Counted from the first letter of the stretch, positions 40,926 to 59,151 are shown. The stretch is DNA of 64,000 nucleotides from Methylophilaceae bacterium (GCA_027488395.1 JAIYBT010000015.1:116679-180678), one strand, 5' to 3'. Translations and numbers: made by a program. The notes: generated from the sequence alone by a model not told the origin.

Positions 40926-41741
40926 TTAACGTGCGTTGACCACCTGTGCTGCTTGCAGGCTCGCCAGCCCCAGCAAAGCGGGGAGCGCTGCCACTGAGTC
41001 AATGGTTGCATCGGGCCTAACGGCAGATAACTTGGTATAGGTTTCACGGTATTTACCTGTTTTCACCAGTACACCGTGTAAACCAGCCGCTTGCGCCCCG
41101 CCAATATCCGCATCAATATCGTCGCCCACCATCAGCACTTCATGTGGTTTTAAACGCATGGCTGCAATGGCCATATTAAAAAAATGTGCAGAAGGTTTAC
41201 CCATCAACATGGCTTTGGTATTGCTGGCATATTCCAGCCCCGTCACAAATGCGCCGATATCCATTTGCAAGCCATATTCGGTTTGCCAAAAACGGTTTTT
41301 ATGAATCGCAATTAATTGCGCGCCGTTCACCAAGCAGGTAAACACCTCGTTGAGTAACGCATACGACCAGCGCTCACCAATATCGCCAATGACCACATAA
41401 TTGGCGGCAGTGTCTGCTTGATCAAAACAGGAAAAATCTTGCTTCACATCATCAGCCAGCAACAACTTACAAACGGGGTTGGCTTGCTGTTTAAGGTAGT
41501 GAATGGTCGCTTGTGGTGCGCTCATCACTTCTTCGGGCACCACATTTAAGCCCAACGCATTGAGTTTTTGTTGCAAGGCGCTCAACGAGAGCGTGCTGGT
41601 ATTGGTGACAAAACGGATGGCAATCCCCGCTTGGCGAAGCTGCTGCACGGTTTCAATGGCACCTGGCAGCACTTGGTTGCCGACGTGGAGCACGCCATCG
41701 AGGTCAAATAATACCGCTTTGATAGGGTTAAACGCTTGCAT
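40926..41741 (-). CDS. HAD-IIA hydrolase, LHPP/HDHD2-like
   Basis: FDLDGVL, FVTNT, GKPS, MVGDDIDADIGGA, VKTGKYR; likely start ATG 41741. Confidence 0.88.
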   Translation of the reverse strand: MQAFNPIKAVLFDLDGVLHVGNQVLPGAIETVQQLRQAGIAIRFVTNTSTLSLSALQQKLNALGLNVVPEEVMSAPQATIHYLKQQANPVCKLLLADDVKQDFSCFDQADTAANYVVIGDIGERWSYALLNEVFTCLVNGAQLIAIHKNRFWQTEYGLQMDIGAFVTGLEYASNTKAMLMGKPSAHFFNMAIAAMRLKPHEVLMVGDDIDADIGGAQAAGLHGVLVKTGKYRETYTKLSAVRPDATIDSVAALPALLGLASLQAAQVVNAR

Positions 41742-41798
41742 ACCTGCCTCATCAATAAAAGGGATAGGCTTTAACCTAAGCAAAAATCATACAGAGTC

Positions 41799-42674
41799 TC
41801 AAGCTTGCCATTGACCCAAGGTCACGCGGTCGTGGTTGGCTAAATCTTGCAAGGTGCTGACTGCTTTAAAACCTGCGGTATTCATTAAGGTTTGCACAGC
41901 CTGTGCTTGTTGAAAGCCATGCTCTATCATTAACCACCCATTTGCTAATAATTGTTTGCTGGCCTCTGCCACAATGCGGCGAATATCGTCTAGTCCATCT
42001 ATCCCTGAAGCCAGCGCCGTGAACGGCTCAAAGCGCACATCGCCTTGGTGTAAATGTGGGTCGGTGGCGGCAATATAGGGCGGGTTGCTGACAATCAGAT
42101 CAAATTGTTCACTGTGGACTGCGCTAAACCAATCGCTTTGTACAAAGTGAATATGTTGAATATTGAGATTGCGCGCATTCTCTTGCGCCACTGCCAACGC
42201 GCTGTTAGAAAAATCCACTGCGGTGACCTGCGTATTGGGGGCCTGTTTGGCGATGGCTAAGGCAATTGCGCCGGTGCCGGTGCCTAGGTCTAAAATATTG
42301 AGGCGGGGTTGCCCGCGATGCTGCATGTGCCCATTTTCCTGCGCCATTATCTTTGCCAGCGCAGCCTCGACCAAAATCTCACTATCTGGCCGCGGAATTA
42401 AAGTGTCTGGCGTGACTTTAAGCCTTAACCCAAAAAATTCGCGCTCACCCAAAATATGTGCAATTGGCTCGCCCGCGACACGACGTGCACACAGCGCTTG
42501 ATAGCGGTGAATCAGGTCTGGTGCTACCGTTTCATTATCGTGCGCAATCAACCACGCGCGGTTTACTGTTAGCACCTGCATCAACAGCATTTGCGCTTCG
42601 ATACTGGCCTCACTGATCGGAACCGCAAGCGCAAACTGTTGCTTTGCAACGGCGAGTAACTCACGCACAGTCAT
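41799..42674 (-). CDS. prmC: Release factor glutamine methyltransferase PrmC (HemK)
   Basis: GEPIAHILG, LIPRPDSE, LDLGTGTGAIA, SNPPY; likely start ATG 42674 overlapping the upstream stop. Confidence 0.96.
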   Translation of the reverse strand: MTVRELLAVAKQQFALAVPISEASIEAQMLLMQVLTVNRAWLIAHDNETVAPDLIHRYQALCARRVAGEPIAHILGEREFFGLRLKVTPDTLIPRPDSEILVEAALAKIMAQENGHMQHRGQPRLNILDLGTGTGAIALAIAKQAPNTQVTAVDFSNSALAVAQENARNLNIQHIHFVQSDWFSAVHSEQFDLIVSNPPYIAATDPHLHQGDVRFEPFTALASGIDGLDDIRRIVAEASKQLLANGWLMIEHGFQQAQAVQTLMNTAGFKAVSTLQDLANHDRVTLGQWQA

Positions 42675-55254: not shown

Positions 55255-55506
55255 ATGAGTAAACCCATGGAAACAAATATTCTGATTATTTTTGGTGCGG
55301 GCGTCAGACAGTTCCGCCTAGCGCAACAGCTTAGCCAAGAACAGCTTGCCCTAAAAGCAAATTTAGATAGGACTTATATCAGCGGCGTAGAGCGTGGTGT
55401 CAGAAATATTAGTTTGCTTAATATCCAAAAAATTGCCAACGCTTTAAATGTGACGCTACCCGTGCTTTTTAACGCGATTCAGCCACCTACAGAGGAAAAT
55501 CAATGA
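55255..55506 (+). CDS. XRE-family HTH controller (C) protein of restriction systems
   Basis: FGAGVRQFR...LSQEQLA...LDRTYISGVERGVRNISLLNIQKIANAL; directly behind the C-box. Confidence 0.9.
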   Translation: MSKPMETNILIIFGAGVRQFRLAQQLSQEQLALKANLDRTYISGVERGVRNISLLNIQKIANALNVTLPVLFNAIQPPTEENQ

Positions 55507-56875
55507 TTGATCAACTCATACAGTTGTTTAAAAACAAAGCAGAGGCGTTTGGGGCGGACCCAACAAAAGAGTTTGTTTTGCGTAATAACACCAAACCAGA
55601 ATCGTTAAATGATAACGGTGCTTACTTTGGCTTAATTTCGCCTGATGAGGAGAGTTCAGGCCAATTCCATGATTTTTCAATTGTGATGTTTCCGAACGTT
55701 GAACAAAAGCCCTATTTACTCACATTAGGTATTGGAAGTTTAGGTTTTAAGAACGACTATGAATTAGCTACTTATCCTGGTCTTAGACGGTTATTTTTAA
55801 AACTTATTGATGAAAATGGGTCTATCAAGTCTGATTTTTCGGATATCGATACAAATTTACCAAAGCCATTTATTAATCGACCTGAGTTACAACATATAAA
55901 AAACACGTTAGGTAAATATACAAAAGTATTGCCAGTGGCACAGATTATCGATGACCCACTACATCCAGAATCACAAAAGCGTATTTCAGCATTTATAGCT
56001 GCTTACGCATTTATACGTGGTTGGCCAAGTAACGATTCACATCGCAAAGCAATAGCGCAAGCTTTATCAAATTACAATCTGACGGATAGTGAGTCAGATG
56101 AAACGCAGGTGAAACGTTTGTTACTTGCGAGAAAGTTTGTCGTTTTGCAGGGCGCACCCGGCACAGGGAAAACCACGCTGGCTAAAAAGATTGGCCATGA
56201 AATTGCACAGTCAATTTACTTTACGCAATTTCATGCTGAAACCAGCTATGTAGATTTTGTCTCAGGTATTCAACCCGACGTTGAGAATAACAGTCTGCGC
56301 TATGTGCATCGGGATGGAGTGTTTGTACAAGCTGTGAAATATGCGGTGGAAAATCCAACACAAAAAGTGATTTTGCTGATTGATGAAATCAATCGTGCGA
56401 ATTTAGCCAGCGTACTCGGTCCGGCTTTTTATTTGTTTGAATATCAAATGCAAGCAACTATGACCAAAATAGATCTCACGCCAAATTTTTCAATCGAGGC
56501 TTTACCAGACAATTTTTATGTGATGGCAACCATGAATACCTCAGATCGTAGTTTAGCGGTGGTGGATTTTGCGCTACGTAGACGGTTTGCTTGGTACACT
56601 TTAAAACCCAAGCCACTGAGTATCAGCCATTTTTATAAAAAGGATTTTGACGAAATTGATAGGATCTTTAATTGGTATGCCAACGAAAACAAATAAATTT
56701 ACAACCGGGTCAAGGGTACTTTATTGCCGCAGACGAAGCAGCCATGCAAGACCGCATTCGTTATGAGATTTACCCATTAATCAAAGAATATTTGTTTGAA
56801 GGCCTGCTACAACATGCCAAAGAGGAATTTAACAGTTATTTTTTAAACAGAATCCAACAACCGCTTTTTGAGTAA
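55503..56875 (+). pseudogene. mcrB: McrB-like AAA+ GTPase, split by a 1-nt frameshift near 56690
   Basis: Walker A GAPGTGKT, Walker B IDEINRAN, McrB signature MNTSDRS, ALRRRF; frame stops at 56696 while the -1 frame (56672-56875) continues INLQPGQGYF...YEIYPLIKEY, a typical McrB C-terminus. Confidence 0.8.
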
Positions 56876-56878
56876 CGC

Positions 56879-58237
56879 ATGGATTTATTTTATGTCATGG
56901 ATTGTTTAACTGAGCTCTCTGCACTGCTCAAAGGCATTGACGTTCAAAAGAAACATCTAAAAGCCGCAGATAAAAGAATCATTGCGCAATACCTGCAAAA
57001 ATTTGTGCAATACAACCAAAAAGCATTGGATTTTTTAGGAGTACAGGCATGGGTAACAGGCACCGACCTGAATGCTGCGCTTCAATTTAGTGCCTCAAGC
57101 TATATCGGCTGTGTCCCACTGCGAGCTTCTGATACGGGTAAACAAATAGGCGATTTTGTAGTAAAACCAAGATACATCAACCAACAACAATATGATGAAT
57201 TTCTTGAAATACTCCACTTGCTCGGGCATGACATTTCCCCCGAATTTTTAGATGGATTAACTCTCAGCTCAGGTCACACGCTCAGACCACCACAATTTCT
57301 TGAAGCCATAAAATTTATCGATTTATTGCATCGTTTGTCTGGCGATGTTTGGCAGAAATTTGCTGTCATTCAACGTGAACAATCTACGCCTAGCGGCAAA
57401 GTCAATTGGGACAAATATGCGAAACAAAGCGCCCACCCTGAAAAGGCGCTTATGTTCCCACAGCGCAACAATAGCCTGACCGAAAACCATGCAGAATATG
57501 CAAAGTTACACTATGTGTTTGATCTATGTAGATCATTGCTAACACAAGCCCATCTCCCCAATGCATTGAAAAGACCAACGCAACAAAAAGTTGATTTTTT
57601 GACGCAACGTCTAGCGCCAATTGCTATGCAAACCACACGCAGCATCACGATAAAAAATAGCGATAAGCCATTGCTGCAAGCCTGTAAAAAACAAGCCAAT
57701 ATCATCTTGCAAAACCAAGCATTCGAGTGTCTTGGCTGGCGCTTAGATGTTGCCGAAATTTTTGAGCGCTATGTGCAGTACGTGTTTACAGAGCTCGCAA
57801 ACATTACAGGCGCTAGGTTGCATAAAAACGTCAAAATACCGGGACAGTTTAAAAAGCAATCAGCCTGGGAGCTCAAATATCTCGAACCAGATGCTATTTA
57901 TCAAAAAGAGCATTTAATGGTGGTTATAGATGCCAAATACAAATCACATTTTTATCATTTGGCTCATGACAGCGAAGCGCTCAAAGAGGAACATCGCCGC
58001 GACTTGCATCAAATTTTAGCCTACAGCGCGTTTAATCATAGTCCACATAAATCAGCAATACTGTGTTACCCAGCGCAATATTTTCAACATAAAACAATGC
58101 TTTATACCAATCCAGCGAACAACTGCTCCAACAAAGTCATCATGCTTGGATTGCCTATGAGCATCACCCTCTACAAAAACGCAAAACAAGCCATGATAGA
58201 GCTGTTACAGCAACTAGAGGCTGACACAGTACTTTAA
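56879..58237 (+). CDS. mcrC: McrC-like PD-(D/E)xK restriction nuclease subunit
   Basis: FERYV, LEPD...IDAKYK...DLHQILAY; follows mcrB. Confidence 0.88.
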   Translation: MDLFYVMDCLTELSALLKGIDVQKKHLKAADKRIIAQYLQKFVQYNQKALDFLGVQAWVTGTDLNAALQFSASSYIGCVPLRASDTGKQIGDFVVKPRYINQQQYDEFLEILHLLGHDISPEFLDGLTLSSGHTLRPPQFLEAIKFIDLLHRLSGDVWQKFAVIQREQSTPSGKVNWDKYAKQSAHPEKALMFPQRNNSLTENHAEYAKLHYVFDLCRSLLTQAHLPNALKRPTQQKVDFLTQRLAPIAMQTTRSITIKNSDKPLLQACKKQANIILQNQAFECLGWRLDVAEIFERYVQYVFTELANITGARLHKNVKIPGQFKKQSAWELKYLEPDAIYQKEHLMVVIDAKYKSHFYHLAHDSEALKEEHRRDLHQILAYSAFNHSPHKSAILCYPAQYFQHKTMLYTNPANNCSNKVIMLGLPMSITLYKNAKQAMIELLQQLEADTVL

Positions 58238-58281: not shown

Positions 58282-58316
58282 CATACTTTAAAAGTATGCC
58301 ATTCGGTATATACCGA
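58282..58316. promoter_or_regulatory. Stacked palindromes upstream of the small secreted-protein pair
   Basis: CATACTTT-A-AAAGTATG (58282-58298) and TCGGTATATACCGA (58303-58316). Confidence 0.6.
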
Positions 58317-58432
58317 CCTACCTATATCGATAGACGATTTGTAGACAAGCACCGCGCATAATGCAAACCATCGTGATTAAGCAAATGTTTAAAACTTACA
58401 TCACACTGTTCAACAAACAAAGGAGAGCAAAC

Positions 58433-58699
58433 ATGCGTAATTTAATTTCTGTCGTCGCTTTAGTCGCTGGTGTATTCGTGGCAGCCCCTGTCGTGGCAGC
58501 TGAACAAAATGTTGGTGCTGAAAATACACATGCCACACATCAATTTTTAAGCAAACGTCCCTATGTGGCACCTGTTGTAGCTAAGGCGGAAAGTGATCAA
58601 GCTTGGATTGGCGCAACACTGGTGGTAGATGGCAATCAGGCGGGTGCAAATGTGCATCAGCCACAAAGATTGCACAACCTCGGAAGACGTGCGTACTAG
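58433..58699 (+). CDS. Small secreted hypothetical protein, RPY-repeat paralogue 1 (88 aa)
   Basis: AGGAG RBS, signal-peptide-like N-terminus ending VVA, motifs HQFLSKRPY, DQAWIG, LHNLGRRAY. Confidence 0.85.
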   Translation: MRNLISVVALVAGVFVAAPVVAAEQNVGAENTHATHQFLSKRPYVAPVVAKAESDQAWIGATLVVDGNQAGANVHQPQRLHNLGRRAY

Positions 58700-58782
58700 T
58701 CAGACCTCTGTAAGGTTGGCGGGGTAGAGTGGCCCTGCAACCAGTGAAACACCCTATAAAAAAATATTTTAGGAGCGAACAA

Positions 58783-59079
58783 ATGAGCAAATTATTATTA
58801 GCAGTATTGGCTGTTGGTTTAGTTGCACAAGTACAAGCCGGCGATTTACCTGATGGTGAAACCAATGTGCGTACGCAACAACACAACAATTTTGTGGGTC
58901 AGCGCCCATATTCAAAAGCACCCAAGGTGCAGGCTAAAGGCGCCGATCAGGCTTGGGAAGGCACTGGCTTAGTGACACAAACGCCAGAGGAAGCTGAAAA
59001 AGCGTTGATGAAACATAACCAGTTACAGTTAAATTTTATGGGTAAACGCCCATATGTGGCACCGCGCAACGCAGAATAA
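58783..59079 (+). CDS. Small secreted hypothetical protein, RPY-repeat paralogue 2 (98 aa)
   Basis: AGGAG RBS, signal-peptide-like N-terminus ending VQA, motifs NNFVGQRPY, DQAWEG, LNFMGKRPY. Confidence 0.85.
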   Translation: MSKLLLAVLAVGLVAQVQAGDLPDGETNVRTQQHNNFVGQRPYSKAPKVQAKGADQAWEGTGLVTQTPEEAEKALMKHNQLQLNFMGKRPYVAPRNAE

Positions 59080-59125: not shown

Positions 59126-59151
59126 ACCCGCCTATTGGCGGGTATTTTTTT
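59126..59151 (+). terminator. Intrinsic terminator after the secreted-protein pair
   Basis: ACCCGCC-TATT-GGCGGGT-ATTTTTTT. Confidence 0.88.

Follow-up and report, generated by a model that had tools for sequence, protein, structure and literature searches.

What do two small adjacent genes, here called A and B, contribute to a bacterium when the proteins that they encode match no described family? The pair lies in a 64,000-nt stretch of DNA from a Methylophilaceae bacterium (GCA_027488395.1 JAIYBT010000015.1:116679-180678); hereafter, "the window" refers to this whole stretch. The Methylophilaceae are abundant methylotrophs of lakes, sediments and coastal waters. We find that A and B belong to a predicted accessory module, seen in Methylophilaceae only, that consists of a GAF-LuxR regulator, a CHASE3 hybrid kinase, a single-domain response regulator (RR) and a cassette holding the two genes. 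We propose, tentatively, that the A and B proteins may be intact periplasmic effectors or feedback ligands of this sensory module, with a logic like that of CpxP and ZraP and an unrelated sequence.

A sequence-only reading of this DNA had described A and B as tandem paralogues with strong ribosome-binding sites, Sec-type signal peptides, a motif-linker-motif layout and one shared terminator, and we recovered each of these features at the positions it gave (Table 1). The two proteins are 33% identical (BLASTP, E = 1e-7). Protein A has the layout ...HQFLSKRPY...DQAWIGATLVV...RLHNLGRRAY-COOH and protein B the layout ...NNFVGQRPY...DQAWEGTGLVT...LQLNFMGKRPYVAPRNAE-COOH. Their N-termini contain a basic n-region, a hydrophobic core and a VVA/A or VQA/G cleavage site, which fits a Sec signal peptide by the crude rule that was used here in place of SignalP and predicts mature chains of ~65 aa (A) and ~79 aa (B). 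In comparisons with the closest orthologues, the ratio of nonsynonymous to synonymous substitution rates (dN/dS) was 0.13-0.32 for A and 0.06-0.12 for B. Given these low values, we conclude that A and B are real protein-coding genes under purifying selection.

The sequence-only reading had also proposed a family-profile search for copy number and gene neighbours, which we performed. A search of 1.8 billion representative proteins returned 85 clusters at 50% identity, all of them 54-139 aa in length. Among 151 Methylophilaceae genomes, the family was present in 34, which represent 9 of 41 genera, with no more than 7 copies per genome. No family member was found outside the Methylophilaceae in 400 genomes sampled at the order level and 400 at the class level; a marginal match in a 270-aa frame (E = 8e-4) was discounted. 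We collected 180 distinct members, all of which have a signal-peptide-like N-terminus by the crude rule. The mature proteins have a median length of 67 aa and a median pI of 8.3, are rich in A, Q, K, N and E, and contain no Cys in any member (0/180), as had been noted for A and B. Two strict motifs are present in 157 of the 180.

This family appears to be undescribed, as the sequence-only reading had suspected. The named database entries, which come from Methylophilus, Methylotenera, Ca. Methylopumilus rimovensis and Methylophilaceae bacterium 11, are all annotated as "hypothetical protein". Neither the window proteins nor 77 relatives had a Pfam match, NCBIfam gave nothing at threshold for the window proteins and 87 members, and no PDB entry matched the family profile. 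Neither the family nor its four-part module was found in the literature searched. Two existing labels were not reproduced. UniRef labels two Methylophilus homologues (P0006 and P0009) as DUF4148, but a Pfam scan at E ≤ 10 found PF13663 neither in the homologues from M. aquaticus and M. medardicus nor in the window proteins. A neighbour of one metagenomic copy has been labelled "MICAH", which a local copy of Pfam did not recover.

The repeated motif has the general form h-h-[SG]-K-R-P-[YF] and is separated by a central core, W-x-G-A-T-L. We aligned the motif profiles on the terminal Y for a column-wise comparison of motif 1 (H/N-F-L-S-K-R-P-Y) with motif 2 (L-R-L-N/H-M/F-L-G-K-R-P-Y/F). The two profiles correlate with r = 0.63, above a null distribution with a mean of 0.06 and a maximum of 0.40 (2000 permutations), demonstrating that they are the same repeated unit. 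Within the motifs, R is conserved at 95-96%, Y/F at 94-95%, P at 66-88% and K at 75%, in agreement with the proposal that the motifs are the conserved units while the spacers drift. The core (W/F-E/V-G-A-T-L) is located 11-15 residues past motif 1 and 17-27 residues ahead of motif 2.

AlphaFold2 runs with 19- and 87-sequence alignments predicted no fold (pLDDT 58 and 64; pTM ~0.2) and one short helix only, consistent with the low structure anticipated from the sequence alone. As three short segments are nevertheless strongly conserved and tightly spaced, the data fit a set of linear binding epitopes, and on these models the proteins are best described as intrinsically disordered, exported proteins that would display three short linear motifs. 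One specific function for the C-terminus of those family proteins that end at motif 2 was rejected: positions -3 and -5 are R/K and S rather than hydrophobic residues, and YxF is missing, which is incompatible with an outer-membrane-protein β-signal or a DegS-activating terminus.

The same residue pattern bears on a further idea of the sequence-only reading, that A and B bind a metal (Cu or a lanthanide) or a quinone cofactor. His, Asn and Gln are abundant in the segment ahead of motif 1, as such binding might predict. However, the His positions are just 14-31% conserved, the invariant residues (K, R, P, Y, W, G, A, T and L) are not typical metal ligands, and there are no EF-hand or Asp-rich loops.

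The family contains two forms that are kept in a fixed order. The tail past motif 2 is bimodal in length: 64 A-type members have none (0 residues) and end in ...KRPY or ...KRAF, and 68 B-type members have a tail of 6-7 residues. We observed the order A-then-B in 22 of 27 two-gene groups, in several genera and in dispersed Methylophilus copies. As this order is kept across genera, the duplication is old and the two forms are not redundant.

A third subtype was seen in Methylophilus (QNIAKRPL...QAWEG...LNLQYASKRPY; loci L035:12514-12771, L039:4461-4697, L041:11665-12015, L042:11744-12103 and L043:12067-12327). It adjoins a PepSY - histidine kinase - OmpR-type RR - PepSY cluster, and its promoter differs from that of the A-B cassettes in having TGAAAG/TGTAAG direct repeats. 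A second two-component system may control this subtype.

The sequence-only reading did not describe an upstream operator or a coupling to a sensory module, and both are new here. We aligned 49 cassette upstream regions on their -10 box and found a ~70-bp module at a fixed register in 37 of them, from several genera and including the window cassette and dispersed copies. Its consensus is (G)CATATGCC-N5-GTATATACC-N4-TACCTATA-N4-GTAGA-TTTTT...N-CATAAT. Within it, GGTATATACC forms a perfect palindrome and CTACC-N6-GGTAG an inverted repeat. Given an inferred transcription start ~7 nt past CATAAT, this repeat is centred near -42.5, and there is no canonical -35 hexamer at 17 bp from the -10 box. This is the predicted layout of a class II, activator-dependent promoter.

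In this respect the cassette resembles LuxR class II promoters, where the lux box sits at -42.5: both have an inverted repeat near this position, a good -10 box and no -35 element, and in both a regulator with a LuxR/GerE-family helix-turn-helix is encoded alongside. They differ in that the cassette has two further palindromes upstream, with the start and the regulator binding inferred only, and in that the cassette regulator has a GAF-like N-terminal domain and not one that binds acyl-homoserine lactones. The half-site TACCTAT, within the inverted repeat, also fits the NarL heptamer, whose consensus is TACYYMT.

A position weight matrix scan of the whole genome that contains the window (2.45 Mb) found two sites only, one in the window (score 81) and one at contig C15:41487-41558 (score 26). 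A 31-nt operator pattern (≤2 mismatches) occurred 1-4 times in each of 37 of the 151 Methylophilaceae genomes, and a reversed control pattern gave 0 matches across the 151. Wherever a site and family genes were both located, the operator was ~115-145 bp 5' of the family gene. Ten further sites had no detected family gene; eight of these precede a small secreted open reading frame (four divergent family copies, two 78-80-aa proteins with WEGAT only and two 68-aa single-motif derivatives), and the remaining two, one of them at a contig end, do not. As the sites are found ahead of family genes or their derivatives, the operator appears to be dedicated to the KRPY family.

A strong terminator ends most family cassettes, including those upstream of SulP. 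The cassette is thus predicted to be a self-contained unit of activator-type promoter, private operator, A, B and terminator, and possession of its own promoter and terminator explains how it could be copied around Methylophilus genomes together with its promoter.

The operator-preceded derivatives differ in what they retain. Those at L075 and L080 (G019:C50 and G006:C150; 78-80 aa, secreted) keep just the WEGAT core, and those at L081 and L082 (G104:C18 and G132:C7; 68 aa) keep just one ...KFLGSRPY motif. These four proteins may be natural dissections of the three motifs.

Neighbour clustering in 40 fetched loci identified an ancestral arrangement that is common to most genera. On one side, the order is Porin_O_P, an occasional DUF2490 gene, Trypsin_2+TPR and then the RR (155 aa), the CHASE3-HAMP-HisKA-HATPase-REC hybrid kinase (~655 aa) and the GAF+GerE regulator (~257 aa), the last three being transcribed away from the cassette. 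On the other side of the regulator are A, B, the terminator, SulP and a β-carbonic anhydrase gene, all in the opposite orientation to the regulator, followed by the convergent isc operon. The only conserved neighbours across the 40 loci are the regulator, kinase, RR, SulP, carbonic anhydrase, isc operon and porin, together with Trypsin_2-TPR in 15 loci. The family pair is ancestrally divergent from the regulator gene, and the regulator start codon sits inside the first operator palindrome, a position that suggests the GAF-LuxR regulator is autoregulated.

The distribution of the family follows that of the sensory genes. The regulator is single-copy in 40 of the 151 Methylophilaceae genomes, and the CHASE3 kinase is found in the same 40, always beside the regulator. 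We observed the regulator in 34 of 34 family-positive genomes and the family in 0 of 111 genomes without the regulator (Fisher p = 5e-28, uncorrected for phylogeny). Six regulator-positive genomes have no detected family copy, and at least three of them have derivatives or a contig break at the site. Presence or absence of the module varies within genera (g23, g26, g35, g39, g5 and g1), so the entire module has repeatedly been acquired or lost in one piece. The 1.28-Mb streamlined genome of Ca. Methylopumilus rimovensis retains it. The regulator helix-turn-helix is of the NarL/GerE type; its recognition helix is almost invariant, and a comparison with operator variants gave no covariation information.

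Two distant full-length relatives of the regulator (33-35% identity) were found in a Steroidobacteraceae metagenome-assembled genome (L091:2219-5627) and in Duganella sp. CF517 (L093:2315-6124). Both have a CHASE3-type hybrid kinase and an RR next to them and a divergent secreted protein opposite; the Duganella protein is NTF2-like (CaMKII_AD/SnoaL matches) and the Steroidobacteraceae one has no Pfam match. These two cases suggest that a sensor with a divergent periplasmic protein may be a general layout.

In the genome that contains the window, the sensory genes and the cassette are separate. Contig C15 carries the regulator (41536-42315), the kinase and RR (to ~44766), and SulP and carbonic anhydrase (41160-38947). 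This ancestral site retains the operator and a GATAAT -10 box, and the ~340 bp between the regulator and SulP contain no family gene. As A and B have been lost there, the window pair is the only cassette in the genome. The promoter at C15:41160-41560 now faces a ~300-nt leader ahead of SulP and the β-carbonic anhydrase gene.

By sequence, the window pair belongs to the subtype found at L033-L036 (60-76% identity). It adjoins YaeQ, TetR, OMF, MFP and RND genes, as do the cassettes at four other Methylophilus loci; in other Methylophilus genomes, another paralogous pair or triplet takes this place. The sequence-only reading had taken the neighbourhood to suggest that A and B plug or bind the OMF/RND efflux pump. 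However, the nearest relatives of the pair (L033-L036) sit elsewhere, no RND adjacency is seen in other genera, and the cassette has its own promoter and terminator. Because these neighbours are not conserved outside Methylophilus, where the ancestral neighbours are instead the sensory module, SulP and β-carbonic anhydrase, the efflux-pump link is unsupported. We consider it extremely improbable that A and B are pump ligands or the metal or cofactor binders discussed above.

From these data we tentatively propose the following sequence of events. The regulator would bind the palindromes near -42.5 and switch the cassette on, and A and B would be exported. The intact proteins would then act stoichiometrically in the periplasm, with their KRPY epitopes binding a partner, and they would most likely serve the periplasmic CHASE3 sensor as its effector, its feedback ligand or both. 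We favour intact effectors or feedback ligands because the most conserved residues are those of the epitope, where A-type proteins also terminate, because the epitope is invariant across genera and shows no pherotype variation, and because no processing or export machinery is conserved nearby.

Several points weigh against this proposal. The regulator has a GAF domain and lacks a receiver domain through which the kinase might signal to it. The apparent coupling could stem from co-inheritance of neighbouring genes, though dispersed copies follow the same pattern. The analogy with CpxP, Spy and ZraP is one of genetic logic only, as these are folded helical proteins with LTXXQ and A and B are neither. 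A bulk role, protective or structural, would likewise agree with the presence of up to 7 copies per genome and with an epitope that does not vary between genera, and the CHASE3 domain, a protease, a porin and an envelope polymer are all speculative candidates for the partner.

The layout of the locus invites a second explanation, in which A and B are signal pro-peptides that are cut at K-R, sensed by the CHASE3 kinase and engaged in positive feedback on their own promoter, which would amount to an autoinducer-like circuit in a Gram-negative host. The only operator targets of the module are small secreted proteins beside sensor and regulator genes, a self-inducing precursor encoded beside its receptor is the classic arrangement in quorum sensing, the start codon of the regulator and the operator overlap, and the proteins are disordered and contain dibasic sites. 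Gram-positive pheromone precursors of the ComC/AgrD type are likewise small genes beside a histidine kinase and regulator, of which they are the main target. The family differs from these in having a Sec signal peptide as opposed to a double-glycine leader, a Gram-negative host and an epitope that does not diversify into pherotypes between genera.

The sequence of the motifs also speaks against cleavage. Conservation peaks on K-R-P-Y with no flanked payload, and the A-type proteins end at the motif with Y or F, so K-R-P-Y looks like an epitope rather than a cleavage site that flanks a payload. Furthermore, an R-P bond resists trypsin-like cleavage (general protease knowledge), and no path through the outer membrane is apparent. 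Within ±8 kb, the 40 loci share no peptidase-ABC exporter, maturase or processing enzyme, and a test for ribosomally synthesized and post-translationally modified peptides or pheromones found no radical-SAM, C39-ABC, dedicated exporter or maturase among the clustered neighbours. We therefore regard processed pro-peptides as unlikely. A broader version, in which the cassette and the GAF-LuxR/CHASE3 kinase genes form a self-signalling circuit and the KRPY proteins or their fragments are CHASE3 ligands that induce their own promoter, is in our judgement decidedly unlikely.

Composition and copy number raise a third explanation, that A and B are bulk stress-protective disordered periplasmic proteins (an Asr-like holdase or envelope-polymer binder) which the module induces and which do not feed back on the sensor. 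The members are mildly basic, disordered proteins that lack Cys and have a high content of Q, N, K and A, and some Methylophilus genomes have 5-7 copies, suggesting a dosage effect. Asr and the enterobacterial YhcN/BhsA-type stress proteins are similarly lineage-restricted, multi-copy, small, periplasmic and induced by two-component systems, and Asr is disordered and basic. A few members have weak, sub-threshold, composition-level matches to Spy, Asr and BRANT, but these are far below cut-off and involve 1-5 of 87 members (for the Asr model NF033636, one of 87 at E = 7.9e-4 and none at cut-off). The family is unrelated to Asr in sequence, and Asr has neither a strict dual epitope nor paired genes; a 4-residue epitope at 95% identity and strict A-then-B pairing are unexpected of a bulk chaperone. 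This explanation, too, we think improbable.

The gene beside the RR points to a fourth explanation: A and B could be decoys, inhibitors or adaptors of trypsin-like periplasmic serine proteases, with Arg placed in the S1 pocket and Pro blocking cleavage. A secreted Trypsin_2+TPR protease is encoded next to the module RR in the 15 loci, K-R-P resists trypsin (the P1' Pro rule), and A-type proteins offer a free aromatic C-terminus. Against this, the protease is unlinked to the module in Methylophilus and in the window genome, and its adjacency elsewhere may be plain synteny within one bacterial family. We view a protease-directed function as very unlikely. The 15 loci with this gene come from several genera (e.g. 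L047:3579-4598), and the window genome has ~5 scattered Trypsin_2+TPR paralogues.

The known systems that come closest to the effector or feedback-ligand proposal are CpxP, Spy and ZraP, which are small, Sec-exported periplasmic proteins with a motif that occurs twice; A and B share the small size and the doubled motif and are predicted to be exported to the periplasm. The cpxP and zraP genes are divergent from their controlling sensory system and rank among its chief targets, and their products act back on the sensor. For the KRPY family we observed a divergent arrangement, a private operator and strict co-occurrence, and by analogy its genetic logic may be alike. The differences are considerable. 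The family has a K-R-P-Y motif and LTXXQ is absent from the window sequences; it has no Pfam or NCBIfam match at threshold, the Spy model having matched 2 of 87 members far below cut-off (E = 1.8e-4); and AlphaFold2 predicted no helical fold for it, in contrast to the folded α-helical hairpin dimer of the LTXXQ proteins. In addition, the predicted regulator is of the GAF-LuxR type as opposed to an OmpR- or NtrC-type RR, and the family occurs as a fixed A-B pair in multiple copies.

A sensor-coupled small periplasmic protein is a known general kind, and the libraries and literature searched contain no description of this family or of its four-part module. In this analysis, two "hypothetical proteins" become part of a four-part system of sensor kinase, GAF-LuxR regulator, private operator and paired secreted disordered proteins whose epitope is nearly invariant. 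The CHASE3 sensor domain is poorly understood, and this system might supply it with a ligand or a partner for feedback; it could also exemplify how linear motifs function in disordered proteins of the bacterial periplasm. If the self-signalling circuit were true, the family would provide the first defined proteinaceous CHASE3 ligand, and Proteobacteria would have a new class of extracytoplasmic signal that is made on ribosomes; if A and B are just bulk stress proteins, they would represent a modest lineage-specific family.

Table 1. Features of the A-B cassette, with positions counted from the first nucleotide of the window.
Feature	Position	Strand	Remarks
Conserved upstream operator	58291..58334	+	same register in family promoters
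Operator element TATGCC	58295-58300	+	
Operator palindrome GGTATATACC	58305-58314	+	
Operator element TACCTAT-N4-ATAGA	58319-58334	+	centre ~-42.5 from inferred transcription start
-10 box CATAAT	58357..58362	+	fixed position in anchored alignment of 37 promoters
Possible 5'-leader hairpin GTGATTAAG...CTTACATCAC	58373..58404	+	-5 kcal/mol, z = -1.0, weak
Ribosome-binding site AGGAG, gene A	58421-58425	+	7-8 nt 5' of start
Gene A, 88 aa	58433..58699	+	open reading frame, paralogue comparison, dN/dS
Gene A signal peptide	~residues 1-22/23	+	crude rule
Gene A motif 1, FLSKRPY	58544-58564	+	
Gene A core, WIGATL	58604-58621	+	
Gene A motif 2, LHNLGRRAY	58670-58696	+	protein stops at motif (A-type)
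GC-rich A-B spacer hairpin, no U-tract	58714..58742	+	part of a -20.8 kcal/mol fold, z = -1.1
Ribosome-binding site AGGAG, gene B	58771-58775	+	7-8 nt 5' of start
Gene B, 98 aa	58783..59079	+	open reading frame, paralogue comparison, dN/dS
Gene B signal peptide	residues 1-19	+	crude rule
Gene B motif 1, FVGQRPY	58891-58911	+	
Gene B core, WEGTGL	58954-58971	+	
Gene B motif 2, LNFMGKRPY	59029-59055	+	followed by 7-residue tail VAPRNAE (B-type)
Intrinsic terminator closing the A-B unit	59126..59150 (59126-59143 plus T-run)	+	7-bp stem, 6 GC pairs

We also noted possible RNA structures within the transcript, in a region where an Rfam scan gave no relevant match. Among 18 lineages (the window and L033-L071), 12 have a hairpin that begins ~5 nt from the inferred transcription start and the rest have none; its stem differs by lineage (GTGAT/ATCAC, CGGG/CCCG, CGAG/CTCG or AAAAGC/GCTTTT). 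Given this distribution and the low z-score in the window, we do not claim it as a conserved RNA element. The A-B spacer is 67-110 nt in Methylophilus cassettes (L033-L044) and contains a stable GC-rich hairpin with no U-tract; in other genera it is 20-50 nt and unstructured. The Methylophilus hairpin may be an intercistronic processing or stability element.

Directly 5' of the cassette, positions 55503-58237 of the window encode a McrB-like AAA_5 protein and a 452-aa protein without a family match that is presumably McrC-like. Neither this McrBC-like unit nor the OMF/RND flank is conserved outside Methylophilus.

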